Under the pieces are notes generated by a model. It saw only the letters and a list, made by a program, of their open reading frames with translations. It searched no databases and was not told where the DNA came from. Positions 24,191-45,628 of a stretch of 64,000 nucleotides of DNA are shown piece after piece (within the stretch, counting starts at the first letter, position 1; every line of letters begins with the position of its first letter). This DNA is from Chamaesiphon sp. (GTDB lineage Bacteria > Cyanobacteriota > Cyanobacteriia > Cyanobacteriales > Chamaesiphonaceae). A program made the position numbers and the translations under genes. The DNA is taken from contig CBDFFH010000009.1 in NCBI GenBank assembly GCA_965246715.1, positions 95,239 to 159,238 of the forward strand. The letters are read 5' to 3'.

Positions 24191-24784
24191 CTATTTATAA
24201 AGATTGAAGTATTGTCCACAAACCAAGTATGCCGTACCTTTCACCTTAAAGTTTTTAGTGTATTGTTTTGCCTTTACATATATCTTTTCAAATGATGAAT
24301 ATTTCAACAACATATCTTCGCCACCGAAGTAAAGAACTACGATATCCTTAAATCCATTTGTTCGATCGGAAGTAACAATAAATCTACTAAAAGATAAGAA
24401 AGAGTCGATTAGTGAATATTGACTGCCGTTATGTTTTAAAATCTCAATCGGACAACCACCCATATCACATAAAAATGGAGAGGGAGATGAAAAGATTCTA
24501 AGTAATATCTCAGGTTGGCCATCTCCATCAAGATCGACTTTGTTATACGAGTATAAAACAGAACCTTTAGAATATAATATTCCTGAATGCTCTGTTCGGA
24601 TATATTGCTCGATTTTATTATCTCTAGAAGAAAAATTCTTAGCAACTTTTACTTCGCTGACATCAATCCCAGATCGAGTTGAAAGAGAGCATTCATCTTC
24701 ACTCCGAACAGAAGTGGTGGCAATAATCAAACAAATGATTGTTGATAGGATAGCTAACTTTTTTGCAACTTTAGGATATATCAT
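24191..24784 (-). CDS. Secreted hypothetical protein with DxDGDG motif
   Basis: Signal peptide; DLDGDGQPE, CDMGGC, TNGFKDI; AT-rich. Confidence 0.65.
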   Translation of the reverse strand: MIYPKVAKKLAILSTIICLIIATTSVRSEDECSLSTRSGIDVSEVKVAKNFSSRDNKIEQYIRTEHSGILYSKGSVLYSYNKVDLDGDGQPEILLRIFSSPSPFLCDMGGCPIEILKHNGSQYSLIDSFLSFSRFIVTSDRTNGFKDIVVLYFGGEDMLLKYSSFEKIYVKAKQYTKNFKVKGTAYLVCGQYFNLYK

Positions 24785-24848
24785 AATTTTCGATTACAGA
24801 CTGGATAAGATGGCTGCACTAGCATATAGCAGCCAAAGCGACTTGAGA

Positions 24849-25784: not shown

Positions 25785-26324
25785 TCGAGCGATATTTAAT
25801 AATTTTAATCAGAGTTATTGACGCTCTAATCGGCTAGTAGTAAGTATAAATAATGAAAATAACCGCTACTGTAAATGATTCTGGAGATAGGGTAGATAAT
25901 TACGCAAATTGCGCTGATAAAAGCTCGATGCTGTCGGGATCGATGTGTTGAGGGCAGTAGCGATTTCTTGCCAACTTTTCCCGCCGCAGACCATTAATAG
26001 AATCGCTTGAAATGTAGCATCTGGTAGAGTTTGAATGTGCTCCTTGGCAAGTAATCCATCGGGGTCGTCGGTGATAAAATCGACTAGTAATTTGAGATCG
26101 TTATCCCCAGCCTCTGGTTGAGGGATCTCGCGCGTGCTAGTCGTCGCATCGTGGGAATTAACCGTTCGATCGGTTTCCTGCCATTGAATGCGGGCTTGCC
26201 TGGGGAGATTGGTGATGCCTCTTTTTTGATACTTTTGATAGACATCTTGAAACCGAAAATTAAAGATATTATTTACCCAGGCCATTACCGAATATTGGGG
26301 GTTGTAAGTAGCGATTTTGCGACA

Positions 26325-27812
26325 CAGGGTGAACGCATCAAAACAGGATTTATTTCGATCGAGAGCCACTAAAATAGGCGATTAATGATATTCGATTGCT
26401 TAACTACAATTACGACAATATCAATAAAATCGAAACCAAAGACGAGGTTAAATTAACTCAATTTAGTCCGGCAAAAGTGCGGCTAAAGATATTTAGCCAA
26501 ATTCATACTCTGGGGTTAGTTAAATTTAGGCTAAAATAGCCTCTAGAAGTTCGCGCGAATATTCTTCATCAAGGCTCGCAAGAAATCGCTTCTTCCTAAC
26601 ACTTAGTTTTCGACTCTTGTTCTGACTCATTATATTAACTGCTATATGTCTTAAAACAGCAAAATTAGCTGGAGCATTATCTTTTCTAATTCGACTAATG
26701 TCTTCTTTGAAAATAACATCAAGTACCCAATGGAGTGAATTTTCTATCGACCAATGACCTCTGATTGCTTCTGCTAGTTTTTCAACATTATCTTCTAAGC
26801 TACTGATGAAATAACGAGCTTCTACGCTGGTTTTTTCATTGACAACTCGAACTGATTCTACCATGCAAATACTAGTCAGATTTTGCCATTTTAGCAATGG
26901 ATCTATTGATGTTGCAATGTCTGATATCATTAGGTAATTACGAGTTTCCTCTCTACCTCTATTCATCTCTCTACTGCTGAAGCTATGCGTTTTCAGACTT
27001 TCACCACGAGTTTTAATCGCCTGTTTGAATAGCTGTTCTACCCTTTCATATAAACTTGGTTGATTCTTTTTGACAGCAATTACATAATCTGCTTCTTTTT
27101 TGACAATTTTCTTGACTATTTCTCGCTGACATCCCATTGCATCAATTGTCACTATACATCCAGCTAGATCTAAGGCATTAATCAACTCAGGCAATGCAGT
27201 AATTTCATTTGATTTACTCTCGACTTTTGTTTGTCCTAATACTAATCTATTACTTGCTGCCCAAGCACTGACCGTATTAATTACTCCTTTACCATTTTTT
27301 TCGTCTCTTGAATTTCGAGATTGTTTTCCATCAAATGCGATTATCTCTCCTGCTGTTATTTTACTTATTCCTTTAATCCAATGCAGGAAAGATTTATTGA
27401 ATTCTTCAGGATTAATTTGTGAAAATACCCGTGCAAATGTATCGTGAGATGGTATCCCATTCGGTAATTCTAGAAATTCCTCCAGCCATTTTTTTCTGGT
27501 GATGCCATACAGCTCTATGTCTTCCCATCCATCTGCTCCACATACTACTGCACAAATCGAGATCGTGATAATATCGATTAGTTTGTGTTTTTTCCCCCGT
27601 TCAATTCTAATGTCTTTTATGTCACCAAAGTGTTCTGCGATACTATGCCTTGGCTTTAGCTTCATTTGACGCGATCTGAATTTCCAATAAATATAACATA
27701 ATTAACTGGCTATACTTGTTTACCATTAAAGCTTTCATACTTTTCGTAATTCAAATCTGCAACTGATTTGCGAGGATTTTAAATAGTAGGAAATTTAAGT
27801 GCGTTCACCCTG
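26325..27812 (-). mobile_element. ISAs1-family insertion sequence
   Basis: TIR CAGGGTGAACGCA at both ends; 10-bp TSD TTTTGCGACA (26315-26324, 27813-27822). Confidence 0.95.
26526..27665 (-). CDS. ISAs1 transposase
   Basis: GIPSHDTF, DGK, KSNEITA, TIDAMGCQ, HWSIENSLHWVLDV. Confidence 0.96.
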   Translation of the reverse strand: MKLKPRHSIAEHFGDIKDIRIERGKKHKLIDIITISICAVVCGADGWEDIELYGITRKKWLEEFLELPNGIPSHDTFARVFSQINPEEFNKSFLHWIKGISKITAGEIIAFDGKQSRNSRDEKNGKGVINTVSAWAASNRLVLGQTKVESKSNEITALPELINALDLAGCIVTIDAMGCQREIVKKIVKKEADYVIAVKKNQPSLYERVEQLFKQAIKTRGESLKTHSFSSREMNRGREETRNYLMISDIATSIDPLLKWQNLTSICMVESVRVVNEKTSVEARYFISSLEDNVEKLAEAIRGHWSIENSLHWVLDVIFKEDISRIRKDNAPANFAVLRHIAVNIMSQNKSRKLSVRKKRFLASLDEEYSRELLEAILA

Positions 27813-28019
27813 TTTTGCGACAGATTTCCAGCAGCGTCTCGTTGAGAGCTTCATCATAAATATCTTGAAAATTGGGAATGTTCGACCAGTTACGTTGTCT
27901 GGCGATACTGTCAGATTGACGAATGGCACTCATTAATTTTGATAAAGCAATCCGCCGTTGCGAACTGCGATCGGGAGCTGTTTGGGCTTGTGCTACTAGT
28001 TGGCGTAATTCATCCATAT

Positions 28020-28487
28020 TTAACATCTCGCGCTTAACTGATGTAACATCGGGCCGACTTGTTGCATCGAGCCACTAGTAGCGTAATTTCTGCCTAAAAT
28101 CGCCATGTTGGGGGTGGAGTCAAAGGCTTGTTTGAGTTTAAAAATCTCTGTGGTGGTATAGATTGTCTCATCGGTCGCGATCGAGTATGCACCATAAGTA
28201 AGTTCGATTTTCCAGCGATCGTAACCTTGATGTCGATATCCCAAGCCGATCGTCCGCTCGATCGGAATCGATAACGCTCGAAAGTTCTGGAGTTGTTTTT
28301 GTTCGATCTTCGGGATCCGTTCGGCTACTACTTGTTGCAACTTTGGGGAGATAACGACCTTGCCAGTTTGAATCTCGATCGTTTTAGTCTGTGCGGGTTG
28401 TTGGACGTAGGCAACAATTGCTAAATCGGGGCGGGTCAATCGATTGCAGAAGGTAAAATGCTCGATCGGTAAGATGGTTGCTAACAT
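28020..28487 (-). CDS. Hypothetical protein, first gene of the sigma-DUF1822 operon
   Basis: 155 aa; stop overlaps the sigma start region. Confidence 0.55.
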   Translation of the reverse strand: MLATILPIEHFTFCNRLTRPDLAIVAYVQQPAQTKTIEIQTGKVVISPKLQQVVAERIPKIEQKQLQNFRALSIPIERTIGLGYRHQGYDRWKIELTYGAYSIATDETIYTTTEIFKLKQAFDSTPNMAILGRNYATSGSMQQVGPMLHQLSARC

Positions 28488-28517
28488 AAATTTTCAATAC
28501 AGCAGTCGATATTACTA

Positions 28518-28545
28518 ATTCATGTCAGACTCAAGCTTTTTATGC
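28518..28545 (-). promoter_or_regulatory. Putative alternative-sigma promoter GCATAAAA-N16-GAAT (sigma operon)
   Basis: GCATAAAA AGCTTGAGTCTGACAT GAAT, 30 bp upstream of the ATG at 28487. Confidence 0.7.
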
Positions 28546-28685
28546 GTCAGCAGCTCGAAAATCTCGATCGATCTCATTATTCATAGCTTTGTAACAAGGG
28601 TTATTTATATTAAAGGGTACGAGGAAAACGAGTCATACAAATAGCAACTTGGAATATCGATTTGGTAGTTAGCGATCGATCGAAT

Positions 28686-29498
28686 CTAGAATTCACATAC
28701 AGATGCTTTAACTGGATAAACTTTCGCACTAATTTGATTTGAATCGAGAGTGAGATCTGTCAATTTAGTCAACCCAGACAATGGCTTGACATCACCGATC
28801 TGATTTGATATGAGGATGAGAGCTTTCAAGTTAGTCAACTTAGCTAATGGCTTAACATCACTAATTTTATTTGAATCGAGGAAGAGAGCTTTCAAGTTAG
28901 TCAACCCAGCTAATGACTTGACATCACTAATTTTATTTGAACTGAGGTGGAGATAGACTAAGTTAGTCAACCCAGCTAATGGCTTGATATCACCGATTTG
29001 ATTTGAACTGAGGGCGAGTTCGGTCAAGTTGGTCAAACTAGCTAATAGCTTGCTATCACTGATTCGATTCTCGCTGAGGTCGAGATAGGTTAACTTAGTC
29101 AACCCAGCTAATGGCTTGACATCACCGATTTGATTTGAACTGAGGTCGAGTTCGGTCAAGTTGGTCAACCTAGCTAATAGCTTGATATCACCGATTCGAT
29201 TCTCGCTGAGGTCGAGATAGGTTAACTTAGTCAATCCAGCTAATGGCTTGATATGACTGATTTGATTCGATCTGAGGTCGAGTTTGTTAAGACTTCTAAG
29301 TTTAGAGTCGGCTGCTTGACAATTGTTAGTACCAGCTTTTTTCAATAAAACATCGATCGTGTGTCTGGTTGCCGCAGGGACAGATGATTTCTGTTGACAC
29401 CACTGAGCAAAGCTTTTCGTTTGTGCGGAAGCTGTTGAGACAAGTGTAGCTTGGACTAGAAGTGTTAATCCGATCGCAAGGAAGAAGAGTTTTTTCAT
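28686..29498 (-). CDS. Secreted internalin-like leucine-rich repeat protein
   Basis: Signal peptide MKKLFFLAIG; FAQWC cap; 22-aa repeats LxxLxLSSNQIGDVKPLAGLTN. Confidence 0.92.
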   Translation of the reverse strand: MKKLFFLAIGLTLLVQATLVSTASAQTKSFAQWCQQKSSVPAATRHTIDVLLKKAGTNNCQAADSKLRSLNKLDLRSNQISHIKPLAGLTKLTYLDLSENRIGDIKLLARLTNLTELDLSSNQIGDVKPLAGLTKLTYLDLSENRISDSKLLASLTNLTELALSSNQIGDIKPLAGLTNLVYLHLSSNKISDVKSLAGLTNLKALFLDSNKISDVKPLAKLTNLKALILISNQIGDVKPLSGLTKLTDLTLDSNQISAKVYPVKASVCEF

Positions 29499-29550
29499 GA
29501 GTTGGGGAATTGGATAAATTAGCAATATTTGGTGGTTCAAAAAAAGCCAG

Positions 29551-29584
29551 GGCATAATTCGGTGATTTCCGCCGAATTATGCCC
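29551..29584. terminator. Hairpin between the Cys-rich gene and the LRR gene
   Basis: GGGCATAATTCGG...CCGAATTATGCCC; T-run shortly after it on the minus strand. Confidence 0.55.
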
Positions 29585-29642
29585 TCAAGACATTAGATTT
29601 AGCTTCAGAACCAGCTATTTTTAATTACACTATCAATGACTG

Positions 29643-30158
29643 CTATTGAGGCGGGGGCATCTTATATTCCGACTTTGGCGTGTAATAACTCATATTGCAG
29701 AACCACTTGCCAAAAGTATCTTGCACGCAGACACCAACGCTCTCAGGTACGCGCGAAACCGTGCAGTTGCCTCCTGCTGGATGTACGCCGCTAATGGTAT
29801 AACAGAGGTAGTGAACTACACTACCTTGGAGATCGTATGCAGGCTTGGCTGTATCGATATTGTTAAAAATTCGGAAATCATTGCTACGAACCTGGCGCGG
29901 TTTGGAAACTTGCAAGTTGAGGATGTCCATGAATTGTGTTGAGTAATTGCGTTGGTATCCACCACTTTCTCGATCGCAAGCAGCATAGATCGCTGCTTGT
30001 CTAGCACCGATCGCACCGCTTGTTGGTGCCATTCTCGATCCACAAGCCCGAGACTGGCGGTTGGTACCGATATTACGAGATTGAGCGGTGACGAGGCAGG
30101 GACTTAGTAGTGTCAGCAGCGCACAGCCGACGATCGCGAGCGTGATTCTTGATTTCAT
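29643..30158 (-). CDS. Secreted Cys-rich hypothetical protein, paralog 2
   Basis: Signal peptide; six conserved Cys in the mature part; close paralog of 30304-30822. Confidence 0.8.
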   Translation of the reverse strand: MKSRITLAIVGCALLTLLSPCLVTAQSRNIGTNRQSRACGSRMAPTSGAIGARQAAIYAACDRESGGYQRNYSTQFMDILNLQVSKPRQVRSNDFRIFNNIDTAKPAYDLQGSVVHYLCYTISGVHPAGGNCTVSRVPESVGVCVQDTFGKWFCNMSYYTPKSEYKMPPPQ

Positions 30159-30303: not shown

Positions 30304-30822
30304 CTATTGAGGCGGTGGCATGTGATAGTCCGGCGTTGATGATAACGTGCTCATAGCGCAGAACCATTTGCCAAAAGTATCTTGCACGCACGTACCAATG
30401 CTTTCAGGTACGCGCGAAATCGTGCAGTTCTGTCCTGCTTTATGCACATTGTCATCAATGTTATAACAGCGGTATTGAACTACGCTGCCTTGGAGATCGT
30501 ATACAGGCTTGGTTGTATCGATATTGGTGAAACTTCGGAAATCGTTACTATTAACCTGACGCGGTTTTGCAACTTGCAGACTGAGGATATCAATAAAGAG
30601 TGTTTCGTAATTTGCGTGGTATCCATCACTTTCTGTATGACAAGCAGCATAAATTGCGGCCTGTCTAGCACTTATGGCACCTCGTGTTGGTGCCGTTCTC
30701 GATGGACAAGTCCGAGGTTGGCGGTTGGTACCAATGTTGCGAGCTTGAGCGGTGAGGATGTAGGGATTTAGTAGTGTCAGCAGTGCACAGCCGACGATCG
30801 CGAGCGTGAGTCTTAATTTCAT
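30304..30822 (-). CDS. Secreted Cys-rich hypothetical protein, paralog 1
   Basis: Shares MK.R.TLAIVGCALL, YDLQGSVV and CVQDTFGKWFC with its neighbour. Confidence 0.8.
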   Translation of the reverse strand: MKLRLTLAIVGCALLTLLNPYILTAQARNIGTNRQPRTCPSRTAPTRGAISARQAAIYAACHTESDGYHANYETLFIDILSLQVAKPRQVNSNDFRSFTNIDTTKPVYDLQGSVVQYRCYNIDDNVHKAGQNCTISRVPESIGTCVQDTFGKWFCAMSTLSSTPDYHMPPPQ

Positions 30823-31012: not shown

Positions 31013-33823
31013 TTAGGGATTATTATTTCTGATTACTAATGCTTTAATTTTGGGATCGTTCATTAACTTTTGAGTATCAGCGAGCAATCGATCGCCCCAA
31101 TTTTGTTCTTTGAGCGATTGAATATTTATATCACGAGAGACTGAGAGCGCACGCTCGGCATTAGCATAAGCTTGAGTTTTTTTTCCTTGGGCGAATAGCG
31201 CAACAGCAAGGGCTAATAGCTCTGAATTTCTGAGCACCTCGTTGCCCCACACGATCGACTGTTGCCAATCTTTTATGGCTTTATCGCGATCGCCCATTTC
31301 ATAGTAAATATGCCCCCGATTGATATAAGCCTCGTCAAATCGGTCTTGAAGTGCGATCGCCTTTGTATAGTCAATTAGGGCTTGCGAGTACTGTTTTTGG
31401 AGGCGGTAGATATTTCCCCTATCGAAGTAATGACTGGCAGTTTTGGGGTCGAGTCGGATTACTTTTGTATAGTCAATTTGTGTTTGTGAGTATTGTTTTT
31501 GCAGGCTATAGAAATAGCCTCGACTATGGTAGGCATCGACATTTTGGGGATCGAGTTGAAGTGCTTTGGCATAGTCAGCTAATACTTGTGAATCTTGTTG
31601 GTTATTTTTGGTATAGCTAGAGCCAAGTTGCCGTTGCTGTAATTCTATATGCATACGGTAAAAATTACCTCGATTGATGTATGTATCTGCATTTTGAGGT
31701 TCGAGTTCGATCGCTTTGTTGAGGTCAGCTAATGCTTGCGGAAATTGTTGTTGGTTGCGATAGATATTGCCCCGATTGATATAGGCATCTGCATTTTGGG
31801 GATCGACTTGGATCGCTTTGTTAAAGTCGGCTAGTGCTTCTGGGTATTGATTATAACGATCTCGGTAGAAAATCCCCCGCTGGATGTAGGCATCGGCGTT
31901 TTGAGGATCGATTTGAATAGCTTTCTTGAGATCGTCAATATCGCCAAGAAATAACGCACGACTGATGTAAGCATCGGCATTTTGGGGATCGATTTGAATC
32001 GCTTTATCAAAGTCAGCTCGTGCTTGCAAGTATTTGTTTTGTAAGCTATGGATATTCCCGCGATTTATATAAGCATATGTATCTTGAGAATCGATTTGGA
32101 TCGCTTTATTAAAATCGGTTAGTGCTCGTGAATATTGTTTTTGTAATTGGTACAGTTGACCACGATTGATATAAGCACGTGTATTTTGAGGATCGAGTTG
32201 AATTGCTTTATTAAAATCGGTTAGTGCTTGTGGATATTTTTTTTGTAGGCGATAGAGATTTCCTCGCTGATTGTAGGCAGAGATATTTTGCAGATCGAGT
32301 TGGATTGCTTTATTAAAGTCTGCTAATGCTTGTGGATAGTACTTTTGTAAACTGTATAATTCGCCGCGATTGATGTAAACAGATATATCTTGAGGATCGA
32401 GTTGGATTACTTTATTAAAGTCTGCTAGTGCTTGTGGATATTGTTTTTGTAGGCCGTAGATATGCCCTCGCTGGTTGTAAGCAATAGTATTGTTAGGTCT
32501 ATCTTTAATAAATCGATCGGTTGCGACGATCGCTTCTGAATACCGTTTGAGATGTTGTAAAATTATCCCTTTTATCATGTACAGCGAGCTATTATTCGGC
32601 TTTAACTCGATCGCTACTTCTATCGCCTTCAAGGCCTCAATATTTCGGTTTAAGCCTCCTAGATACCCAGCTAGACTACGCCATGCAGGCATAAATGTAT
32701 GATCGACCTTAGTAGCTTGTTGAAAGGCAATCACAGCTAGCTGCTCTTGTTTAGATTGCCTATACCCAAGCACTAACCCCCGACCATAATAGGCAAGTTT
32801 GAGTTGGTCTCGATCGGGTGTAGGGGTAGATTTTAATAATCCGATCGCGCGATCGAATGCGGCAACTGATTCCTGAGTTTTATCACTCCGCCATAAGAGA
32901 TTGCCATAATCTAACCATTCCCTAGCCGTCGCAGTTCGACTCGGAGAAGATAGCGTTGCTAATAGATTCTGTTTGATTTCCGCTGTCTGTGCTGAAGTTA
33001 TTGCTAGTGTTGGAGTTAAATCGCTTGGCAATGACGGTAGTTCTGTTTTCACCACTCTCAGTAGAGTAGAAATCGGCACGCCTAGAGCATGACCAGAATT
33101 AATTTCCGTGTATCGACCTCCATCGATTATTTCAGCTTCATTTTCTGCCGCAGTATTAATCCCTACCAGCCTTCCCTGTGTATCCAGTACAGCACCACCA
33201 CTCATCCCTGGCAATGAGAGATTCGTATATAACAAATCGTATCCTCGATCGAGATTTGAGCTAAAGATAGCTCTGAAGTCATTCAAGTTGCGATCTGCGA
33301 AGGTACGACCGATGCTCAAATACCTTGTTTTACTGGGATCTCGTCCCGGAAATCCACTCACGAATACCCATTTATCCCGATTAAATCGATCGTTACCAAT
33401 TTTAGCGACTCGATAATTTTGGTGGGATTTAAATTTAACGATCGCTACATCCGTCCCTGGTTCGGGGACGATAATCTGCTTGACGGCAACTCGTTCTCTA
33501 GTTGGCGTAACGATCGAATACCCTTTTCCTGTAACTACATGCGCCGCAGTCGCCACGTAGTAAGTATTTCCCGTTCTGGCGATGATGACTCCCGAACCAT
33601 TGCCCTGACTATTTTCGATTCTCACCGTGATCTGTTGGGCGATATCATCTACCCGTTTGACAACTCCGGTGTAGTTATTTTTTCGCGCTAATTGCGGCGG
33701 AAAGGATCGCGATCGCGCATCGATTCGAGCTGGAGCTGTTGTGAGTAGGGCAAGTGACAAAGTTGGGTGATAGCCGATCGACAATAGCGATAAAAATGAG
33801 ATGAGAGCTAAATATTTTTTCAC
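31013..33823 (-). CDS. Secreted trypsin-like protease plus TPR array
   Basis: Start reassigned to GTG at 33823 (VKKYLALISF signal peptide); TAAH, DVA, GMSGG; many 34-aa TPRs. Confidence 0.88.
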   Translation of the reverse strand: MKKYLALISFLSLLSIGYHPTLSLALLTTAPARIDARSRSFPPQLARKNNYTGVVKRVDDIAQQITVRIENSQGNGSGVIIARTGNTYYVATAAHVVTGKGYSIVTPTRERVAVKQIIVPEPGTDVAIVKFKSHQNYRVAKIGNDRFNRDKWVFVSGFPGRDPSKTRYLSIGRTFADRNLNDFRAIFSSNLDRGYDLLYTNLSLPGMSGGAVLDTQGRLVGINTAAENEAEIIDGGRYTEINSGHALGVPISTLLRVVKTELPSLPSDLTPTLAITSAQTAEIKQNLLATLSSPSRTATAREWLDYGNLLWRSDKTQESVAAFDRAIGLLKSTPTPDRDQLKLAYYGRGLVLGYRQSKQEQLAVIAFQQATKVDHTFMPAWRSLAGYLGGLNRNIEALKAIEVAIELKPNNSSLYMIKGIILQHLKRYSEAIVATDRFIKDRPNNTIAYNQRGHIYGLQKQYPQALADFNKVIQLDPQDISVYINRGELYSLQKYYPQALADFNKAIQLDLQNISAYNQRGNLYRLQKKYPQALTDFNKAIQLDPQNTRAYINRGQLYQLQKQYSRALTDFNKAIQIDSQDTYAYINRGNIHSLQNKYLQARADFDKAIQIDPQNADAYISRALFLGDIDDLKKAIQIDPQNADAYIQRGIFYRDRYNQYPEALADFNKAIQVDPQNADAYINRGNIYRNQQQFPQALADLNKAIELEPQNADTYINRGNFYRMHIELQQRQLGSSYTKNNQQDSQVLADYAKALQLDPQNVDAYHSRGYFYSLQKQYSQTQIDYTKVIRLDPKTASHYFDRGNIYRLQKQYSQALIDYTKAIALQDRFDEAYINRGHIYYEMGDRDKAIKDWQQSIVWGNEVLRNSELLALAVALFAQGKKTQAYANAERALSVSRDINIQSLKEQNWGDRLLADTQKLMNDPKIKALVIRNNNP

Positions 33824-33856
33824 GATCGATGGAGCTAATTTTATTTGAGTAATATA

Positions 33857-34107
33857 ACGTGAGTTCGGGATAAGGATCTTTGCTTCGTTCCAGCACCGCC
33901 TCCGATTGAAATCGGGGCTAGCATTACAAAGTCCGGTTGTTGCCGCGAGCGGCAAAAGCCTGCCTTCGCGGACTAAGATATCAGTCCGCGAAGCGAAAAG
34001 TGCGGTCTTGGGGTTTCCCCAAGTAGAGCACCTTTTCAAGACAGGCGGACTTTGCATCATGAGCCGAGACTTCTAGTCTCTAGGCAATTATTATCCCGAA
34101 CTGACGT
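33857..34107. mobile_element. MITE with IS982-type ends carrying a family-C REPIN
   Basis: TIRs ACGTGAGTTCGGGATAA / TTATCCCGAACTGACGT; 7-bp TSD TAATATA (33850-33856, 34108-34114). Confidence 0.85.
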
Positions 34108-38739: not shown

Positions 38740-39936
38740 CTACTTGACCGTGGCAACAATCCGGTAGCGTCCGGTTTCCCCAGGTTGAAAGGTTTTGACG
38801 CGAACCATGTAGACTCCATTGCCAGGGAGCGATAGTGAAAGTTTAGCCGTATTATTACGACCGCGCACGCCTTTATTTTCACCAATTTTTTCAGGACTGG
38901 TATCTTCATTGGGGATATAATATAATTCCAAAGAAGGGTCGAGTTTTTCACCAACTATTTCAATATTTAATTTTTGATTGGCTCTTCCTTCAAAAAAGTA
39001 TTGCCGATAGTGGATATTTTTATCATCTACCCGATCGCCTGCCTGGAATACTCCAGAGATCGGTTTACCATTTATTTGCAATAATGTTATCTGTTCCGAT
39101 TTATTGGCATTATCGACGCTAGCAAAATCTGGCGATTTACGCTGATAAGCGGTTAAAAACGAGCGCAGGCGATCTCCAGAAATTGCAATACTGATACTCG
39201 TATTTGTCGGGCCGCCTTCAGTATTTCTGGCATAAATTGCCGTGTTAATACCGATGACTTGTCCTTGGGAATTAATTAGCGGGCCACCTGAGTTACCACT
39301 GTTAATGCGGGCATCATGATAGAGTAAACTTTGCGCTCGATCGATTTTATTGAGTACACCAGCAGTAAAAATATTATCGATGCCAAATGGCGAACCGATC
39401 GCGTAGACGCTTTGCCCGACTTTGAGAGAGTTTTGAGGGGCGAGAGCTAAGTATTTTAAGTTGCTTTGATTGGGGATTTTTATGAGGGCTAAATCTTCAT
39501 TTTGCGAAGCACCCAGGACATTAGCCTTGAGACTCGTACCGTCGGCGAGGGTGATTTGGACGGATGCAACCACTTTGTTGCGCTCATCGTGGACGACATG
39601 CTTATTGGTAACGATTAAGCCATCCTTGCTAATGATAAAGCCACTGCCGATCGTACTCCCCGAAACAATCTTGACTACGGCATCTTTACTGCGATCGAAC
39701 AGTTTGACGCGTACGGTTTCGTCAGTAGTTGTCGAGTTGACAGCGACAGTTCTCAGATCGGCGCGTTCTAGGTTGACTTTGCTAGCTACTGGGATTTTTT
39801 GCAGATCTAAGGTAGTTTGAATCGATCGATCTGCACGAATGCAGCTACAGGCAAGTTGCGTAAATCCAAATGCAGTAAATCCGACTAAAGGAAAGCCGAT
39901 CGCACAGATAATTTTAAGATTATTTTTTAGAGACAT
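38740..39936 (-). CDS. S1C trypsin-like protease with C-terminal PPC-like domain
   Basis: GSGFII, TNKH, DLA, AIGSPFG, GNSGGPL; C-terminal LDPSLEL...GRY. Confidence 0.9.
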   Translation of the reverse strand: MSLKNNLKIICAIGFPLVGFTAFGFTQLACSCIRADRSIQTTLDLQKIPVASKVNLERADLRTVAVNSTTTDETVRVKLFDRSKDAVVKIVSGSTIGSGFIISKDGLIVTNKHVVHDERNKVVASVQITLADGTSLKANVLGASQNEDLALIKIPNQSNLKYLALAPQNSLKVGQSVYAIGSPFGIDNIFTAGVLNKIDRAQSLLYHDARINSGNSGGPLINSQGQVIGINTAIYARNTEGGPTNTSISIAISGDRLRSFLTAYQRKSPDFASVDNANKSEQITLLQINGKPISGVFQAGDRVDDKNIHYRQYFFEGRANQKLNIEIVGEKLDPSLELYYIPNEDTSPEKIGENKGVRGRNNTAKLSLSLPGNGVYMVRVKTFQPGETGRYRIVATVK

Positions 39937-39994
39937 ATCGTTATCTTCATCTGAGTTTGGTTTATCGCTCGGATCGAGTGGTTGGCTGTAATTG

Positions 39995-40022
39995 ATTCTT
40001 ATTACACTAGGGTTTTTTATGC
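39995..40022 (-). promoter_or_regulatory. Putative alternative-sigma promoter GCATAAAA-N16-GAAT (protease/COP23 operon)
   Basis: GCATAAAA AACCCTAGTGTAATAA GAAT upstream of 39936. Confidence 0.7.
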
Positions 40023-40142
40023 AGCTCTAGAAAAAATTTACATTTAGTTACAGGGGAGGAGAAGGGGGAAAGGGGAAAGGGGAAAGGGGGATAATTGGAC
40101 TACACTCGAAGAGGATGCCAGCAGCAGGTATCCGTCCTAGCT

Positions 40143-40170
40143 GCATAAAATCGCCGACTAGCGACCGAAT
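40143..40170 (+). promoter_or_regulatory. Putative alternative-sigma promoter GCATAAAA-N16-GAAT (CHAT-STAND operon)
   Basis: GCATAAAA TCGCCGACTAGCGACC GAAT, 32 bp upstream of the GTG at 40203. Confidence 0.7.
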
Positions 40171-40202
40171 CAACTAGTAAGAACGCGCGGCAATACCCGA
40201 TC

Positions 40203-43200
40203 GTGAAGCAGCTACTCGTACTGAATTTAGATGGAGACTTTACCCGTGGATTTAGCGTCCACTGGGAAATCGGTAGCGAGGATCGAGCCGTTTGTCGCGA
40301 TGGTTATAGTAAATTGCGCCCGATGCCAGATTTAGACTTGGCATTTCGAGCGTGGGATCGGACTTATCGGAGTTTGGATGGCATCAATCGCATCAAAATC
40401 AAGCCCAACCAAATTACGAATGTCCGCTATTCGTCATTGCAGTTGGAGTGCGGACGACAAGCCAAAAACTTAGCTAGGGCGATCGATGATTGGTTCGAGC
40501 GATCGGATTTGAGCCGAGTCATTCGCGAACAGTTAATCCCTACCCCTGGCGACGAGTACCGGGCGATCGTCCGCACTACCGATTTCCAAGCACGACAACT
40601 CCCGTGGCATCTCTGGTCGGGATGGCGCGCGATCGATCGGCTAGAAATCGCTCTCAGCACGCCACAAGGCCTACGGCGAGACCGAATTTACCAGCAACAG
40701 GTACGGGTACTAGTCGTGCTCGGCAACAGTGAGGGCATCGACATCGAGGCCGATCGCCAACTTTTGGCAGATTATTGTCTGGGTGCCGATCTCACCGTAT
40801 TATCCGAGCCAACTCGATCGCAGTTGAGCGAGCGATTACTCGATAAACGCGGTTGGGATATCCTGTTTTTCTCAGGACACAGCAGCACCGAAGGGAATGG
40901 TACCAGGGGTAGAATTTGGCTCAATCGTACCGATAGTTTCACGATGGTCGAACTGAGACGAGAATTGCAAACCGCGATCGCTGGGGGATTGCAACTGGCC
41001 GTATTTAATTCATGCGACGGCTTGGGTGCCGCTGCGGAACTAGAGACGCTCTATATTCCCCACGCGATCTTCATGCGCCAACCAGTACCCGATCGCGTAG
41101 CTCAAACGTTCCTCAAAGATTTTTTAGCGGCATTTACTGGGGGGGCATCGCTAGCTCGATCGGTAAATATCGCCCGCGATCGACTTCAAGAATTAGAAAC
41201 AGAGTTTCCCTGTGCGAGTTGGCTGCCCGTACTCATCCAAAATCGGCTCGCTATCCCCCCAACTTGGCAAAGCTTGGGAGCGATCGCCAACTGTCCGTAT
41301 CGCGGTTTGGCAGCATTTGCCGAGGAGGATAAAGACTATTTTTATGGACGCGAAGAGTTTGTCGCTAGTTTGGTTGAAGACCTCAAAACCCGATCGCTAG
41401 TCCCGCTGATCGGTGCATCGGGAAGTGGTAAATCTTCGCTGGTATTTGCTGGGTTGATTCCCCAGTTGCGCCAAGACGATCTCCACTGGCAGATCGTTTG
41501 CTTGCGTCCGGGGACAGAGCCGATCGTGGCACTAGCAACTGCGGTGACATCGCTAGCAGCATCTCCCGCTCTGGCATTAGAGTTAGCACGATCGATCGCC
41601 ATCGACGAGCTGGCGGTAGTTAACTTCATGAGCGAATCTGGGCTGAATGGCAATTTAATCGAGTTGCACTCACCCAACGATCGCTTACTCTTAGTTATCG
41701 ATCGATTTGAGGAACTCTATACCCTAGCACCAGATAGAGCGGAACGTCGCCAATTTCTCGCTAATATTCTCAACTTGCTCGACCGATCGCCTGAAGTAAA
41801 GTTACTATTCGCCTTACGCGCTGATTTTTACGATCGCCTGCTGGAGGATTATCCACTGGTAATCGCCCTAGAACGGACGCAGAGCAGACATTTAACGCCA
41901 ATGACGCGCGCGGAACTAACTCAAGCGATCGTCATGCCAGCGCAGAAATTAAACGTCCGGTTTGAAGATGGCTTAGTCGAACGGATTGTGGATGCTACCC
42001 TGGGCGAGCGACATATCTTACCGCTGCTCGAATTTACCCTCACCCAATTATGGACGAAACAACGGGATGGCAATCTCACTCATCGCGGTTATGAGGAGAT
42101 CGGCGGGATCGATCGGGCGGTAGTCGATCGGGCGGAAGCAATTTATGCCCAGTTAACAGCTAGCGAGCAAACCCAGGCGCGCTCTATTTTCGGGCAACTG
42201 GTGCAAGTCGGCGAACAGACACTAGCTACCCGCCGGATGACTAAACGAGCGGAACTCGACCCCGACAGTTGGAGTTTAGTCGAGCATTTAGCCGCAGTAC
42301 GGCTAGTGACGATCGATCGCGCCGAAATTGCAGGTGATGAAACCGTCGAACTGATTCACGAGGCATTGATTGGCTACTGGGACAGACTGAAATTATGGAT
42401 CGAGATCGATGGCGATTTTCGACACTGGCAAGAACGATTGCGGGCGACGATCGATCGGTGGGATAAAAACGGGCGGGATGAGAGTGAGTTAATCCGAGGG
42501 AGAACGTTGGATACAGCTTTAGATTGGACGATAAAACAGCCCGATCGATTGCGGCGATCGGAAGCAGAATTTATCCAACTGAGTGCCACTCATCAGCAAC
42601 AGGAAATAACCGCCAAACAACGGCTCCAGCAGCGTATTATCGGTGGATTAGTCGCTGGATTGACGATCGCGACTACTTTGGCGAGTATCGCCCTGTGGCA
42701 ATGGCACCAAGCAAGCTTACAAAGACGCTCGGCTATTAGCAATCGCGTCGAATCGTTAGCCAGTAACGCGCGCTTATTATTCGAGTCTGGCAATCAATTG
42801 GCAGCTTTACAACAAGCTCGACTAGCTGCTGCGGAGATCGCGCGCGAACCTGAACTCACTAGTGAATTTAAGCTTCCCGCGCTCGCGACGCTCTCGGATA
42901 TCCTCGATCGCATTCAAGAACAGCGCGTGCTAGCGCGACATACCAATTCAGTCGCCAGCATTGCTTACAGTCGCGATGGTAAGTTCATAGTTTCGGCTGG
43001 CTGGGATAATCGAATTCATATTTGGACTGCTAACGGTCGATCGATCCAAACATTAGTTGGCGATAACGAACGGTTTTTCAAAGTCATCGTTCATCCCAAC
43101 AGTCACGAAATTATTACTGCTAGTTTCGAGCGCGGGGTTAAAATCTGGCATCGCCATCGGCAAACGGGACTCTGGATCGATCGATCTCAAGGCATCTTCG

Positions 43201-44705
43201 ATCGACCCGTCACCGCGCTCGCCTTGAGTCGCGATGGTCGAAAATTAGCGATCGCGACTAAAGCTGCGAGCATCCAATTTTATCCAGATTTTAGCAATGC
43301 ACCGCTTAAATATCGCTCTTTGCCGATCTCCAGTCTAATTAACGACCTCAGTTTTAGTGCCGAAAGTCGCGAGATCGTGGCGGCAAATAATGATGGTACG
43401 CTGAAAATTTGGACGATCGAGGGAAAATTATCGCGCACGATTGCTGGAGGACATGGCCAAGTTTTAACGGTTGCAGTTAGTCCCGATGGTAAAACGATTG
43501 CTGCTGGAACTAGCGATGGGACGATCTCACTTTGGAATGCTCAAGGGCAGTTATTACTCTATATTAAAGGACAACCGCGAGCGATCCTCGATCTTAATTT
43601 TAGTCCCAACGGTAAAATACTGGCGGCGGCTAGTGAAGATCGTCAAATTAAACTTTGGAACGCGACGACGGGGAAGTTAGTCGATACGCTTCAGGGACAT
43701 CAAGATAGCGTCAATGAAGTCAGTTTCAGCCCCGACGGTCGCACCCTCGGCTCGGCAAGTGCCGATCGCACCGTGAGATTGTGGCAGATCGATCGACCGC
43801 CAGCAACGAGCGACCGAGCGACTAGTTTTGGTTATAACCCACTGCACGATATTTTAATCCTCGGGGGTACGCCTACAGGCACGATAACGATCTTAAATCG
43901 CGATCGACAGGTCGTCCGCCAGTTTACCGCTCATCAAGCTGAAGTAATCGGGATCGGATTGAGTACAGACGGGGAATATCTCGCCACCACCGACAGTCAA
44001 TATCAACTCGCTAACAAGATCGGGTTTAAAAACTCTCAAGTAAAACTCTGGACGAAAACGGGCAGACTAATTGCAACCTTGCCAGGATATCGAGTTAGTT
44101 TCAGTCCCACTCGATCGGTATTGGCGATCGCCACTAGCGATGGTAAAGTAAATATCTACGATCCTAGCGGTCGGGCTGTTGCTAGTTGGCAAACCCAACA
44201 GTCGAGTCTCAATACTCTAAATTTTAGTCCCGATGGTCGCACACTCGTTACCGGAGATAAGGCGATAAAAATCTGGGATTTAAATGGTAAGTTATTAGAC
44301 GATCGTTCAATCGAAACAGGGAGAATTTTAAATGTTAGTTATAGTTCAAATTCTGATACGTTAGCGATCGCTAGCGATTCCCGTCCACCACTGCTGTACT
44401 CGCTCCAATCTCGATCGATTCGCACTTTAGGTAATAACGTCGGCACGACCGCCACCAGTTTTAGTAACGATGGAACTGTCGTGCTAACTGGAGATACAGC
44501 AGGTAATATCCAACTCTGGAGTCGAACGGGTCGGTTATTAATGACTATTTTTACCCCCATTCATCGAGGTTATTCAATTTCACAAGTCGGATTTGGTACT
44601 AGCGATAGCGAAATTTTGGCGATCGATATTAATGGTCACATAAGTCGCCACAATCTCGATTTGGATCGATTATTGATGCTAGCAGATCGGTGGCAAGCTA
44701 AATGA
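40203..44705 (+). CDS. CHAT (caspase-like) protease - STAND NTPase (nSTAND1-like) - TM - WD40 protein
   Basis: His/Cys dyad FFSGHS and FNSCDG; CPYRGLAAF, GASGSGKSS, VIDRFEE, LPLLEFTL, HEALI; TM IIGGLVAGLTIATTLASIALW; WD40 repeats. Confidence 0.92.
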   Translation: MKQLLVLNLDGDFTRGFSVHWEIGSEDRAVCRDGYSKLRPMPDLDLAFRAWDRTYRSLDGINRIKIKPNQITNVRYSSLQLECGRQAKNLARAIDDWFERSDLSRVIREQLIPTPGDEYRAIVRTTDFQARQLPWHLWSGWRAIDRLEIALSTPQGLRRDRIYQQQVRVLVVLGNSEGIDIEADRQLLADYCLGADLTVLSEPTRSQLSERLLDKRGWDILFFSGHSSTEGNGTRGRIWLNRTDSFTMVELRRELQTAIAGGLQLAVFNSCDGLGAAAELETLYIPHAIFMRQPVPDRVAQTFLKDFLAAFTGGASLARSVNIARDRLQELETEFPCASWLPVLIQNRLAIPPTWQSLGAIANCPYRGLAAFAEEDKDYFYGREEFVASLVEDLKTRSLVPLIGASGSGKSSLVFAGLIPQLRQDDLHWQIVCLRPGTEPIVALATAVTSLAASPALALELARSIAIDELAVVNFMSESGLNGNLIELHSPNDRLLLVIDRFEELYTLAPDRAERRQFLANILNLLDRSPEVKLLFALRADFYDRLLEDYPLVIALERTQSRHLTPMTRAELTQAIVMPAQKLNVRFEDGLVERIVDATLGERHILPLLEFTLTQLWTKQRDGNLTHRGYEEIGGIDRAVVDRAEAIYAQLTASEQTQARSIFGQLVQVGEQTLATRRMTKRAELDPDSWSLVEHLAAVRLVTIDRAEIAGDETVELIHEALIGYWDRLKLWIEIDGDFRHWQERLRATIDRWDKNGRDESELIRGRTLDTALDWTIKQPDRLRRSEAEFIQLSATHQQQEITAKQRLQQRIIGGLVAGLTIATTLASIALWQWHQASLQRRSAISNRVESLASNARLLFESGNQLAALQQARLAAAEIAREPELTSEFKLPALATLSDILDRIQEQRVLARHTNSVASIAYSRDGKFIVSAGWDNRIHIWTANGRSIQTLVGDNERFFKVIVHPNSHEIITASFERGVKIWHRHRQTGLWIDRSQGIFDRPVTALALSRDGRKLAIATKAASIQFYPDFSNAPLKYRSLPISSLINDLSFSAESREIVAANNDGTLKIWTIEGKLSRTIAGGHGQVLTVAVSPDGKTIAAGTSDGTISLWNAQGQLLLYIKGQPRAILDLNFSPNGKILAAASEDRQIKLWNATTGKLVDTLQGHQDSVNEVSFSPDGRTLGSASADRTVRLWQIDRPPATSDRATSFGYNPLHDILILGGTPTGTITILNRDRQVVRQFTAHQAEVIGIGLSTDGEYLATTDSQYQLANKIGFKNSQVKLWTKTGRLIATLPGYRVSFSPTRSVLAIATSDGKVNIYDPSGRAVASWQTQQSSLNTLNFSPDGRTLVTGDKAIKIWDLNGKLLDDRSIETGRILNVSYSSNSDTLAIASDSRPPLLYSLQSRSIRTLGNNVGTTATSFSNDGTVVLTGDTAGNIQLWSRTGRLLMTIFTPIHRGYSISQVGFGTSDSEILAIDINGHISRHNLDLDRLLMLADRWQAK

Positions 44706-45628
44706 AAATTAGTAAATATGTGGAATTCTTGGGAATAACTGGAGCGACGATAATTAGTGTCGCGATTCAGTGTAACGTGCGAGCGAGCTGTCATGACAGC
44801 AGCTCGCTGGCGAGGAGTTATCCAATCGCCTTAATGGAGCCAGAGCAAGTAGAGAGTTACTTGAGTAAAGGGATCGCTGACTTCGAGCGAGGTCGGTATC
44901 CAACAGCGATCGGTAATTTTTACCAAGCTTTGAAAATCAACCCTAAATCTGCACTAGCATTCTACTATCTCGGAGCGATTTATACCGAGCGGTATCAAAA
45001 TGCCATCTCGATCGATAATTCCAGTCTGTTGATGCAATGCTCGATCCACAGAACTAACGAGCTGCAAGTTTTTTGTCGTCGGTTGATTTTATCTGAGTGG
45101 CAACAACAGCAACAATCCCTAGCAATTAAGAACTTTACTAAAGCGATCGAACTGCAACCTCAATACCCCGAAGCATATCATGCTAGAGGTATCGTTCAGT
45201 TACCCAATACAGGTGCTGCCGTGAGTGATTGGCAGCAGGCGCTCGAAATCTGGCAGCAGGATTTGGAGCGAGATCGCACTTCCGCTCGCGCGAGCGGACA
45301 AACTCGCGATCTGACCAAGCTCTCGATCCAAGTAGACAGAATTTTAAAGATCTCCCGCAATATCGATCTACTCAAAGATGAAATCTCCAGTCAAAAAAAT
45401 CCCGGCTCTGCTTCTGGCTACTCTTCGTTAGATAAATCTTTGCGTAAAAAAGTTCGAGATTTATATATCGAAGCCAATCGGCTATTAAAACAAGGTAATA
45501 TCCAAGCTGCTAAAAATAAATATCAGGAAGCTAAATTAATTTTATTGCATCACGATCGATCTCAAGAATATCGAGAAGTAGAACAGACAATCGCGCAACT
45601 CGATCGTCTATTGCCTACAAACCCGTAA
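44702..45628 (+). CDS. TPR protein with N-terminal signal/TM segment
   Basis: Overlaps the upstream stop; ALKINPKSALAFYYLG and AIELQPQYPEAYHARG. Confidence 0.8.
   Translation: MKISKYVEFLGITGATIISVAIQCNVRASCHDSSSLARSYPIALMEPEQVESYLSKGIADFERGRYPTAIGNFYQALKINPKSALAFYYLGAIYTERYQNAISIDNSSLLMQCSIHRTNELQVFCRRLILSEWQQQQQSLAIKNFTKAIELQPQYPEAYHARGIVQLPNTGAAVSDWQQALEIWQQDLERDRTSARASGQTRDLTKLSIQVDRILKISRNIDLLKDEISSQKNPGSASGYSSLDKSLRKKVRDLYIEANRLLKQGNIQAAKNKYQEAKLILLHHDRSQEYREVEQTIAQLDRLLPTNP

Follow-up and report, generated by a model that had tools for sequence, protein, structure and literature searches.

A candidate caspase-like receptor, ECF sigma factor and DUF1822 switch in Chamaesiphon sp., with a sigma gene split by a recent ISAs1 insertion

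We analyzed a 64-kb stretch of Chamaesiphon sp. DNA, called the window here at its full length, and examined positions 24191 to 45628 (~21 kb), a locus that holds a predicted caspase-like receptor, a sigma-like gene and a DUF1822 gene. The genes form two diverging groups. The receptor gene and that of a tetratricopeptide repeat (TPR) protein are on the plus strand, and all other genes are on the minus strand. From 39936 down to 24191, the minus-strand genes encode a trypsin-PPC protease, a COP23-family protein, a 1,257-amino acid (aa) double-trypsin-TPR protein, a second trypsin-TPR protein, two Cys-rich proteins, a leucine-rich repeat (LRR) protein, a 155-aa open reading frame (ORF), the sigma-like factor, DUF1822 and a 197-aa protein. 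An original prediction on this DNA had read the locus as a protease-triggered sigma regulon. All the genes and domains that it listed were found in place by Pfam, NCBIfam and translation.

The receptor gene (40203 to 44705, plus strand; Pfam) encodes 1,500 aa. Residues 1 to 115 form a constant, EACC2-like N-terminal module. They are followed by a CHAT domain (PF12770, residues 116 to 333; Pfam E value 1.5e-11, 44.7 bits against a cut-off of 24) and an nSTAND1 nucleoside triphosphatase (NTPase) domain (PF20703, residues 365 to 760; Pfam E value 4.3e-113), which has the P-loop GASGSGKSS in its translation. A hydropathy scan finds a transmembrane (TM) helix at residues 812 to 830, at the same position in 3 of 3 full-length homologues, and Pfam finds a WD40 array at residues about 900 to 1500. 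The catalytic dyad, His226 (in SGHS) and Cys271 (in NSCDG), is kept in all 9 of the 9 aligned homologues. By this alignment the receptor carries an intact dyad of the CHAT, or clan CD caspase-fold, type, and protease activity is predicted. The single chain of CHAT protease, STAND NTPase, one TM helix and WD40 array that had been proposed was thus borne out.

The receptor is 40.9% identical across 1,500 aa to its orthologue at L060, a locus from another family of the same order. Its mean identity to 12 full-length receptors is 54% in CHAT, 45% in nSTAND1 and 24 to 31% in WD40. The CHAT domain is the best kept and the WD40 array the least kept, as expected of a conserved signaling core with a diverging sensor. 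We suggest an N-in/C-out topology, in which the CHAT and NTPase domains would be cytoplasmic and the WD40 array outside, because a K/R-rich stretch (three to five Lys/Arg) lies N-terminal to the TM helix in 4 of 4 receptors (WQWQ comes after the helix), because sister receptors have an extracytoplasmic CHASE2 or periplasmic-binding domain C-terminal to it, and because the TPR partners carry signal peptides.

The receptor stop codon overlaps the start of the TPR gene (44702 to 45628, plus strand; Pfam) by ATGA, an arrangement of translational coupling that confirms the predicted pairing of the two genes. The encoded 308-aa protein is probably exported. TPR homologues with clear signal peptides (27 to 30% identity, E values 1e-19 to 1e-23) directly follow CHAT-nSTAND1 genes in 6 of 80 related loci, described below, and also in L060.

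The sigma gene lies on the minus strand in two pieces. Its 5' part (27813 to 28026, codons 1 to 71, ECF type, that is, of the extracytoplasmic function type) was located by alignment to the L060 orthologue. Its 3' part (25866 to 26324), with the end of region 2, the linker and region 4, was located by alignment and by weak Sigma70_r4_2/TIGR02937 matches. Between them is a 1,488-bp insertion sequence of the ISAs1 family (26325 to 27812, minus strand), identified by its NCBIfam match and its termini. The inverted ends match perfectly over 13 bp, the target site is duplicated over 10 bp (TTTTGCGACA), and the transposase gene (26526 to 27665, minus strand) matches NF033564 at 7.8e-127 (422.8 bits against a cut-off of 70). 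When the element and one copy of the duplication are removed, the sigma frame has 220 codons and no internal stop. The 5' part is 53% identical to residues 12 to 75 of the L060 orthologue and the 3' part is 40% identical to residues 72 to 217, and both fragments are colinear with intact orthologues of 208 to 257 aa. The sigma gene had been described as directly followed by DUF1822. That order stood, with the addition that the gene in the sequenced assembly is broken by the insertion sequence.

Taken alone, the window fragments score under the family cut-offs (21.5 against 42.9 for TIGR02937 and 25.6 against 25.7 for Pfam). The L060 orthologue passes TIGR02937 (45.7 against 42.9), and 9 of 20 aligned members match. 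A PDB profile search with the short sigma placed SigK first (E value 2.2e-5). The AlphaFold2 (AF2) model of the short sigma, with a predicted local distance difference test score (pLDDT) of 86.4, shows the region-2 and region-4 helices and an extra N-terminal helix pair. Foldseek ranks 1 to 14 for this model were all ECF sigmas, with a best E value of 1.3e-2 and none at 1e-3. By sequence and fold, then, the factor is of the ECF type. The helix pair corresponds to a two-helix extension of about 55 residues that is conserved at the N terminus of the short sigmas and absent from standard ECF sigmas.

The insertion into the sigma gene is, on sequence comparison, young or very recent, because 20 full-length copies of the element, 99.9 to 100% identical, are present in the genome (query, 1480 bp). 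Three further copies are partial or rearranged. The copies are spread over the genome (for example C2, C15, C21, C38 and C39), and by the same measure an ISAs1-family burst of transposition is ongoing. The empty site was found in contigs of X1 and X2, runs of unrecorded type, and of X17, a metatranscriptome library. These contigs join 26314 to 27813 exactly, with 10 shared letters, and derive from relatives about 96% identical. An intact sigma allele therefore exists in nature. Elsewhere in the locus, the X17 contigs span DUF1822, COP23 together with trypsin-PPC, the 155-aa/sigma region and, in parts, the receptor; this coverage is no claim of expression, as DNA can occur in RNA libraries. All sequencing runs were used as contigs, at most 0.49 of the sampled words occurred in any run, and neither depth, expression level nor gaps in coverage are interpretable from them.

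DUF1822 (PF08852; 24849 to 25784, minus strand) is a 311-aa short-form protein with a Pfam E value of 1.9e-48 (165.8 bits against a cut-off of 25). Its AF2 model (pLDDT 88.9) consists of an alpha/beta N-domain, a helical linker and a C-terminal beta-sandwich, a fold that is not that of a TPR protein. An exposed linker segment (about residues 195 to 215) is modeled at a pLDDT of about 80. Hydropathy passes the threshold of 1.6 at one peak (1.64), which falls within the region modeled as the beta-sandwich. The protein has no convincing TM segment and is predicted to be cytoplasmic and soluble.

Two proteins of no known family accompany the pair. The 155-aa ORF (28020 to 28487, minus strand; no Pfam or NCBIfam match) stops 4 nucleotides (nt) downstream of the sigma ATG, and the two frames overlap by 7 nt. 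The last gene of the sigma operon (24191 to 24784, minus strand) encodes a 197-aa protein that hydropathy suggests is exported. The 155-aa, 197-aa and Cys-rich proteins have no paralogue elsewhere in the window's genome.

We compared the locus with 80 related loci from named cyanobacterial genomes (Calothrix, Microcoleus, Nostoc, Scytonema and others), found with a 4-sequence alignment as seed, and with 40 loci from the same order (20 with long-form and 20 with short-form DUF1822). A search for related loci with the window DUF1822 alone had returned 73 pattern matches and no relative. Among the 80 loci, a sigma gene is present in 76 and lies directly upstream of DUF1822 in 72, with a median gap of 26 nt; four of the eight loci without an adjacent sigma have less than 400 nt of upstream sequence. 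The CHAT module, detected with a hidden Markov model of the EACC2-CHAT module, is within the locus in 75 of 80 and directly downstream of DUF1822 in 66, at a median distance of 78 nt. Of the 14 loci without a directly adjoining CHAT gene, 7 have a trypsin-TPR gene in between. The proposed neighborhood of DUF1822 thus held for sigma (72/80) and CHAT (66/80) and failed for COP23, which is not a general neighbor (2/80 and 1/40).

The order sample gave the same arrangement. CHAT is directly downstream of short-form DUF1822 in 18 of 20 loci, and the window sigma fragments match the ORF just upstream in 18 of 20 (17 by the C-fragment at an E value of 0.01 or better, and L044 by the N-fragment only). 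In the long form, a sigma of 390 to 430 aa is directly upstream in 18 of 20. DUF1822 occurs in 38 of 41 sampled genomes of the order. The window's genome alone has 11 DUF1822 matches (10 over the cut-off), 17 CHAT and 15 COP23 matches. At six other loci of this genome, the protein right after DUF1822 is homologous over the full length of receptor residues 1 to 360. The C termini of these six paralogous CHAT proteins differ (CHASE2, a periplasmic-binding domain, or TM-220 aa-TM). As these alignments have it, sigma, DUF1822 and the CHAT module are a tightly conserved trio that forms a multi-copy cassette.

Some of these cassettes have their own surroundings. Three paralogous COP23 cassettes, C44 (L017:2436-14357), C20 (L015:296-19983) and C31 (L016:4536-19627), consist of a long sigma (about 460 aa), DUF1822, a CHAT receptor, a small trypsin, three tandem COP23 genes and trypsin-TPR genes. 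The long sigma is not in the stretch fetched for C20, and no small trypsin was seen beside the C20 COP23 triplet. The CHAT receptor ends in TM-220 aa-TM in C44 and C20, and no TM helix is predicted after CHAT in C31. Eleven of the 15 COP23 genes of this genome are within about 15 kb of a DUF1822 gene. The same switch is found beside a two-partner secretion (TPS) set in C37 (L014:4446-17266), where a TPS exoprotein, a 390-aa sigma, DUF1822, CHAT-CHASE2, DUF928, ShlB/POTRA and TPR-CHAT share one strand. C49 (L012:13755-19508 and L013:5773-12658) encodes a 491-aa protein, DUF1822 and then a CHAT receptor that carries a periplasmic-binding-protein domain, with a second binding protein and three OprB porins downstream; it looks like a nutrient-sensing version of the switch. 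In 8 of the 20 long-form loci (L022, L024, L025, L026, L030, L035, L036 and L037), sigma-DUF1822 is beside a 1,260- to 1,750-aa nSTAND1 protein that has no EACC2-CHAT module.

The closest relative of the whole locus is L060, whose DUF1822 is the nearest in the order sample (41.8% identity). On one strand, L060 encodes a 380-aa trypsin, two COP23 proteins and a 1,316-aa trypsin-TPR protein, and then the switch genes in the order sigma (217 aa), DUF1822 (318 aa), a 1,523-aa CHAT-nSTAND1-TM-WD40 receptor and a 297-aa exported TPR-like protein. The window contains these genes too, but its receptor-TPR pair is inverted and located at the opposite end of the protease genes. Because the set recurs colinearly in L060, its assembly in the window is more than chance.

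The CHAT-nSTAND1 receptor, found in 14 of the 80 related loci, has its own partner genes. A trypsin gene lies within 10 kb in 10 of the 80: eight are of the nSTAND1 type, and in the other two the contig ends too early to reveal the receptor type. The count is thus 8 of 14 CHAT-nSTAND1 loci versus 0 of 61 with other receptor types, although these counts are not independent, since several loci come from related genera. The trypsin-TPR relatives are 36 to 39% identical over about 1,000 aa to the window's 1,257-aa protein. Their genes are between DUF1822 and the receptor gene in L080 to L085 and L093, and beside them in L088, L091 and L103. In L088 (Calothrix sp. HK-06), trypsin, COP23 and trypsin-TPR are divergent from sigma-DUF1822-CHAT. 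COP23 is beside the switch in four cassettes of the window's genome, and a module of COP23, small trypsin and trypsin-TPR accompanies sigma/DUF1822/CHAT in the window, in L060, in L088 and in three cassettes of the same genome. A conserved exported 142-aa ORF is located between trypsin-TPR and the receptor in L082 (Calothrix sp. PCC 7103; 8448-8876) and L083 (14215-14643), and also in L080, L081, L084 and L093. It has its own copy of the promoter motif described below in L081, L083 and L084, and BLAST found no relation between it and the window's 155-aa and 197-aa proteins.

A candidate promoter motif is present upstream of the short sigma genes. It reads TTGCGTAAAAC, about 15 nt, and then (C)GAGA. 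Allowing at most 1 mismatch, the core GCGTAAAA precedes 8 of 19 sigma genes, which also share boxes downstream of it. By itself, the 11-mer TTGCGTAAAAC shows no enrichment in the window, with 17 matches where 21.6 would be expected. A six-site position weight matrix (PWM) run over the 40 order-sample loci found further copies scoring at least 15 in short-form loci only; the 20 long-form loci had no such hit and a maximum of 14.2. L060 has a copy 29 nt before its first trypsin gene (score, 18.2). Other copies precede a 2,184-aa DUF4114-subtilase (L059), a C-terminal CHAT protein (L057) and a Calx-beta protein (L061). Across the 80 loci (1.33 Mb), 64 PWM hits score at least 15: 26 before sigma, 4 before DUF1822, 4 before CHAT, 21 within 300 nt of other starts and 9 elsewhere. 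The CHAT genes of L081, L083, L090 and L103 have the motif at the same place as the window receptor.

We scanned the window with a 13-site PWM that was built from other genomes and contained no window sequence. The top hit (score, 16.1; 40139 to 40173, plus strand) is the candidate promoter of the receptor operon. It reads TGCATAAAAT, 16 nt and CGAATCA, and its end lies 30 nt upstream of the GTG start codon; its score was attained in 1 of 30 shuffles. The fourth-ranked hit (10.0; 39992 to 40026, minus strand) is the candidate promoter of the trypsin-PPC/COP23 operon and is also a match to a strict pattern, GC[AG]TAA[AT][AT]-N14-18-GAAT[CT]A. These two sites face both ways in the 266-bp divergent spacer and share AGCTGCATAAAA and GAATCAA at equal spacing. 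The sixth-ranked hit (8.5; 28515 to 28549, minus strand), GCATAAAA, 16 nt and GAATTA, is a candidate autoregulatory promoter of the 155aa-sigma-DUF1822-197aa operon. The strict pattern has 7 matches in the 64 kb, all between 25.8 and 40.2 kb, and shuffles average 0.09. Taken together, the sites support an autoregulated sigma with a small local regulon that would include the receptor, and these promoters would depend on the window sigma. The proposal that the freed sigma transcribes the whole locus was upheld in part: the motif is at the receptor, trypsin-COP23 and sigma operons, whereas the LRR and Cys-rich genes are preceded by weak or palindromic sites, and COP23 and the TPR-trypsins have none of their own.

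Other features of these promoter regions were seen. A G-rich run (40047 to 40091), with GGGGAAA three times, is in the divergent spacer between the two candidate promoters, and in read mapping 40057 to 40091 was marked as a repeat where contigs break. A perfect-armed palindrome at 29552 to 29582 (TAATTCGG, 9 nt, CCGAATTA) extends over the LRR start codon (29555) into the spacer upstream. It fits the derived pattern on both strands and, instead of a promoter, may be a hairpin or an operator. Tandem motif copies, two or three of them ~84 nt apart, were found in Microcoleus (L099:7115-7316, L106:6597-6799 and L113:1652-1770), where they precede ORFs of 2,168 to 2,340 aa (L099 and L106) and 519 aa (L113) next to sigma/DUF1822. 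A 9-mer count upstream of the three long-form COP23 cassettes returned genome-wide GATCGATC-type repeats only and no shared promoter. Scans for sigma-70 promoters and terminators gave fewer sites than shuffles, and they did not define transcription units.

The predicted exported set of three trypsin-like proteases, COP23, an LRR protein and two Cys-rich paralogues is present on the minus strand. Export was called by inspection and a hydropathy scan rather than by a dedicated predictor, and signal-peptide-like N termini were seen in the 197-aa, LRR (after Met20), Cys-rich, 1,257-aa, COP23 and trypsin-PPC proteins. The first gene of this set (38740 to 39936, 398 aa; Pfam, NCBIfam and hydropathy) encodes an HtrA-like trypsin protease that ends in a PPC domain, with orthologues in L060 and L088. 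The COP23-family protein (38084 to 38656, 190 aa) has a Pfam E value of 4.3e-28 and a signal-like N terminus. The exported 1,257-aa protein (34190 to 37963; Pfam) combines a double trypsin domain with a long TPR array. The second trypsin-TPR frame (31013 to 34060; Pfam) probably has its true start at a GTG at 33823 (936 aa), which opens a signal-peptide-like segment. The DNA between these two genes, 33438 to 34104, has a word depth 20 to several hundred times that of its neighbors in all four metagenome runs, and 33850 to 34064 has many loose contig ends. It looks like a short dispersed repeat, which probably created the 79-residue N-terminal extension of the 31013 to 34060 ORF. The two tandem exported Cys-rich paralogues (29643 to 30158, 171 aa; 30304 to 30822, 172 aa; no family) are 72% identical to each other, and an Atlas search with a Cys-rich protein gave no usable match. 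The exported LRR protein (28686 to 29555; Pfam) has its signal peptide after Met20; L057 has two LRR genes near its sigma/DUF1822 pair.

We consider it fairly probable that the receptor CHAT cuts DUF1822 and so frees the ECF sigma for its own operon, the receptor operon and the exported trypsin/COP23 operon. Every step of this chain we infer from what is directly seen, namely the receptor architecture, its intact dyad, the synteny of the trio, the ECF sigma, the motif at three operon starts and the disruption by the insertion sequence. In this scenario, a signal would be sensed at the outer WD40/TPR assembly, perhaps together with trypsin-TPR. The STAND NTPase would then switch or oligomerize in a ligand-driven manner and activate CHAT. 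CHAT would cleave DUF1822, which had sequestered the sigma factor, and the released sigma would transcribe its own operon and that of the receptor, together with the exported protease/COP23 genes. By analogy with the HetF circuit discussed below, DUF1822 is likely to be both the anti-sigma and the CHAT substrate.

Several observations weigh against this proposal. A Foldseek search with the DUF1822 model gave no PDB fold match at an E value of 1e-3 or better, and therefore nothing marks DUF1822 as an anti-sigma domain. Kinship between DUF1822 and PatU3, the HetF substrate, was not established, and the sigmas beside DUF1822 lack the HetZ signature residues. The receptor gene is 14 kb from sigma-DUF1822 and on the opposite strand. 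The promoter evidence has its own weak points. The window hits of 10.9, 10.0 and 8.5 are within the shuffle range (shuffle maxima, 7.5 to 16.3). The first of these, the third-ranked site before DUF1822 (25909 to 25875, minus strand), is inside the end of the sigma coding region, in conserved Leu-Arg-Asn/Lys codons, and may be a coding artifact. Four of the seven matches to the strict pattern had served to derive it, and two of the remaining three are both strands of one palindrome. In the window, no motif precedes COP23, the two TPR-trypsin genes or Cys1. Outside the window's genome, COP23 is near DUF1822 in only 2 of the 80 and 1 of the 40 loci.

The alternative that fares best keeps the same switch and changes the role of its exported proteins. 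The double-trypsin-TPR protein, the TPR partner and COP23 would be extracytoplasmic sensing parts and not outputs, in a periplasmic protease complex that processes the ligand or the WD40 ectodomain, as DegS acts upstream of RseA. The trypsin-TPR gene is inside the signaling operon, between DUF1822 and the receptor, in the 7 loci listed above (L080 to L085 and L093); it is tied to the nSTAND1-WD40 subtype only (8/14 versus 0/61); and the TPR partner is translationally coupled to the receptor. The exported proteases may on this evidence be co-sensors rather than the effectors first proposed. However, a place in an autoregulated operon suits an output equally well, the trypsin-COP23 genes have their own motif copy in L060 and in the window, and the motif also precedes unrelated exported proteins elsewhere (the subtilase-DUF4114 giant, the Calx-beta protein and the C-terminal CHAT protein), which looks like a set of variable outputs. 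We regard the sensing role as somewhat unlikely.

A different possibility, along the lines of Kaur et al., is a system of programmed death or of defense against invaders, in which the receptor would itself be the effector, through self-processing and broad proteolysis, and sigma-DUF1822 would have a side role. That study places EACC2-caspase proteins among the conflict systems of multicellular bacteria (PMC8195603). The NLR-like STAND core of the receptor (NLR, nucleotide-binding leucine-rich repeat receptor), a family that is multi-copy with diverging sensors (11 DUF1822 matches in the genome; WD40 identity, 24 to 31%), and mobile elements nearby would all agree with such a role. We judge it quite unlikely, as the near-invariant sigma pairing and the shared promoter motif point to a transcriptional output, and the sensor is placed outside the cytoplasm, where phage components are not expected. 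A defense role had been part of the original prediction and found no backing: a PADLOC-DB 2.0 scan of 9 proteins gave generic WD40 and trypsin-domain hits only and no system-specific match, and DUF1822, sigma, COP23, TPR and LRR had no match of any kind.

Of similarly low probability is a positive role for DUF1822 as an adaptor (scaffold or co-activator), with CHAT acting elsewhere, for example on the N-terminal extension (~55 residues) of the sigma. That two-helix extension is conserved in the short sigmas and absent from standard ECF sigmas, and DUF1822 does not resemble known anti-sigma domains. Yet the sigma-DUF1822 order and tight spacing are typical of sigma/anti-sigma pairs, and in the only experimentally studied trio of CHAT, sigma and partner, the partner inhibits and is cleaved (PMC9457339 and PMC13342950). 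Finally, chance juxtaposition of unrelated genes in an insertion sequence-ridden region, to which the separated and inverted receptor, the 20 full-length ISAs1 copies and the lack of relatives of the Cys-rich, 155-aa and 197-aa genes in the loci examined might point, is very improbable and is already disfavored by L060, which carries the set colinearly on one strand, by L088, where trypsin, COP23 and trypsin-TPR diverge from sigma-DUF1822-CHAT, and by the motif copies that face both ways in the 266-bp spacer.

If the cleavage of DUF1822 by CHAT is correct, it would give a function to DUF1822 and to a widespread class of bacterial caspase-like receptors, and it would link such receptors to transcription through a defined promoter motif. 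COP23 and its trypsin-TPR neighbors would also gain candidate partners and their first candidate regulator. The switch in the sequenced strain would be dead unless the ISAs1 element excises. The locus is a natural experiment, with a very recent insertion knock-out of the sigma set beside an intact allele in close environmental relatives. We tentatively raise a broader idea, which is possible and that we hold with less confidence than the cleavage itself. DUF1822 may be a large unrecognized family of cytoplasmic anti-sigma factors, each copy destroyed by a dedicated receptor-caspase, and may define a third major class of transmembrane signaling in cyanobacteria beside two-component systems and ECF/anti-sigma pairs. 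The window subtype would then be a cross-membrane NLR-like receptor, with WD40 and an exported TPR/trypsin co-receptor outside, in which apoptosome-like STAND oligomerization activates the caspase and leads to a secreted protease/COP23 program of envelope remodeling. Such a cross-membrane reading of an NLR-like architecture also bears on how STAND/caspase signaling evolved.

The closest experimental counterpart is the HetF circuit of Anabaena sp. PCC 7120. The HetF CHAT protease cuts PatU3 after Arg117 (PMC9457339), and PatU3, termed a potential anti-sigma factor, inhibits the ECF-type sigma-HetZ (PMC13342950). The logic invoked in the original prediction, a CHAT protease that frees a regulator by cutting its partner, therefore has an experimental precedent (PMC9457339 and PMC13342950). 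In HetF the CHAT domain is cytoplasmic and a TM helix connects it to periplasmic repeats (TPR in HetF), the topology predicted for the window receptor. In both circuits an ECF-type sigma is encoded just upstream of its inhibitor, a candidate one in the window, and the sigma activates its own circuit, as is predicted for the window. The HetF inhibitor is removed by CHAT cleavage, and we propose the equivalent for the window. Unlike the window receptor, HetF has no STAND NTPase and is unlinked to hetZ. Sigma-HetZ has three insertion domains and recognizes TCCGGA-N16-17-TGNA (PMC13342950), whereas the window sigma is a plain 220-aa ECF factor with no insertions and a different motif. The window switch would work like HetF-PatU3-sigma-HetZ but is not orthologous to it.

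Orthology with HetF was rejected, since the window receptor scores 24.2 bits on NF045509 against a cut-off of 1200. A HetZ-type sigma was rejected too, since the long-form sigmas next to DUF1822 share few of the 15 published contact residues (1 and at most 5). No TCCGGA-type promoter was found before 18 long-form sigma genes, and a PDB search with a long-form sigma gave no match at an E value of 0.01 or better. A degenerate DNA pattern for the published PatU3 cleavage-site peptide matched 0 of 401 genomes. A protein search of 4 genomes (family f29, which we guess to be heterocyst formers) found no further long-sigma paralogues. A full-text search of the DUF1822 literature returned nothing on PatU or sigma-HetZ/PatU3, and DUF1822 literature was absent from the COP23 full-text matches listed.

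Two better known pathways share parts of the proposed logic. In type III-E CRISPR Craspase, the TPR-CHAT protease Csx29 cuts Csx30, which is bound to the sigma factor CASP-sigma/RpoE. The window switch resembles it in that a CHAT protease, predicted here, would release a regulator bound to an ECF-like sigma, and two long-form paralogue sigmas of the genome weakly match the type III-E sigma model (E values 9.9e-7 and 1.8e-4), both scoring below the cut-off. It differs in having no CRISPR-Cas context and in its proposed activation by a membrane STAND receptor and not by target RNA. In the DegS/RseP-RseA-sigma-E pathway, an envelope signal leads to proteolysis of the anti-sigma and to release of an ECF sigma that is encoded in an autoregulated operon. 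The same sequence of envelope signal, anti-sigma proteolysis, ECF release and autoregulated operon is proposed for the window. Unlike RseA, the anti-sigma candidate would be soluble and cytoplasmic, and the protease would be a clan CD cysteine protease fused to its receptor, with an NTPase switch between.

The most similar systems in print are the EACC2-caspase neighborhoods that Kaur et al. described in silico in 2021 (eLife, PMC8195603), mostly beside an ECF sigma and DUF1822. These share with the window a constant N-module, a caspase or CHAT domain, a variable C terminus that includes STAND NTPases, and TM-anchored extracellular sensors, and also the neighboring ECF sigma and DUF1822, a proposed proteolytic activation and a transcriptional output (PMC8195603). 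The window has the features of this group (N-module with CHAT, DUF1822 and sigma), by a comparison of architecture rather than with the authors' EACC2 profile. The study is computational, names no substrate and takes DUF1822 for a TPR protein (PMC8195603), in contrast to the alpha/beta and beta-sandwich AF2 model here. Its text does not include COP23, the promoter motif or the link of nSTAND1-WD40 to double-trypsin-TPR, although the supplementary neighborhood tables may list such loci (PMC8195603). The trio itself is already in print as a computational prediction (PMC8195603), to which the locus adds a sigma gene knocked out in nature, the trypsin-TPR and TPR partners that go with one receptor subtype, and specific candidate promoters.

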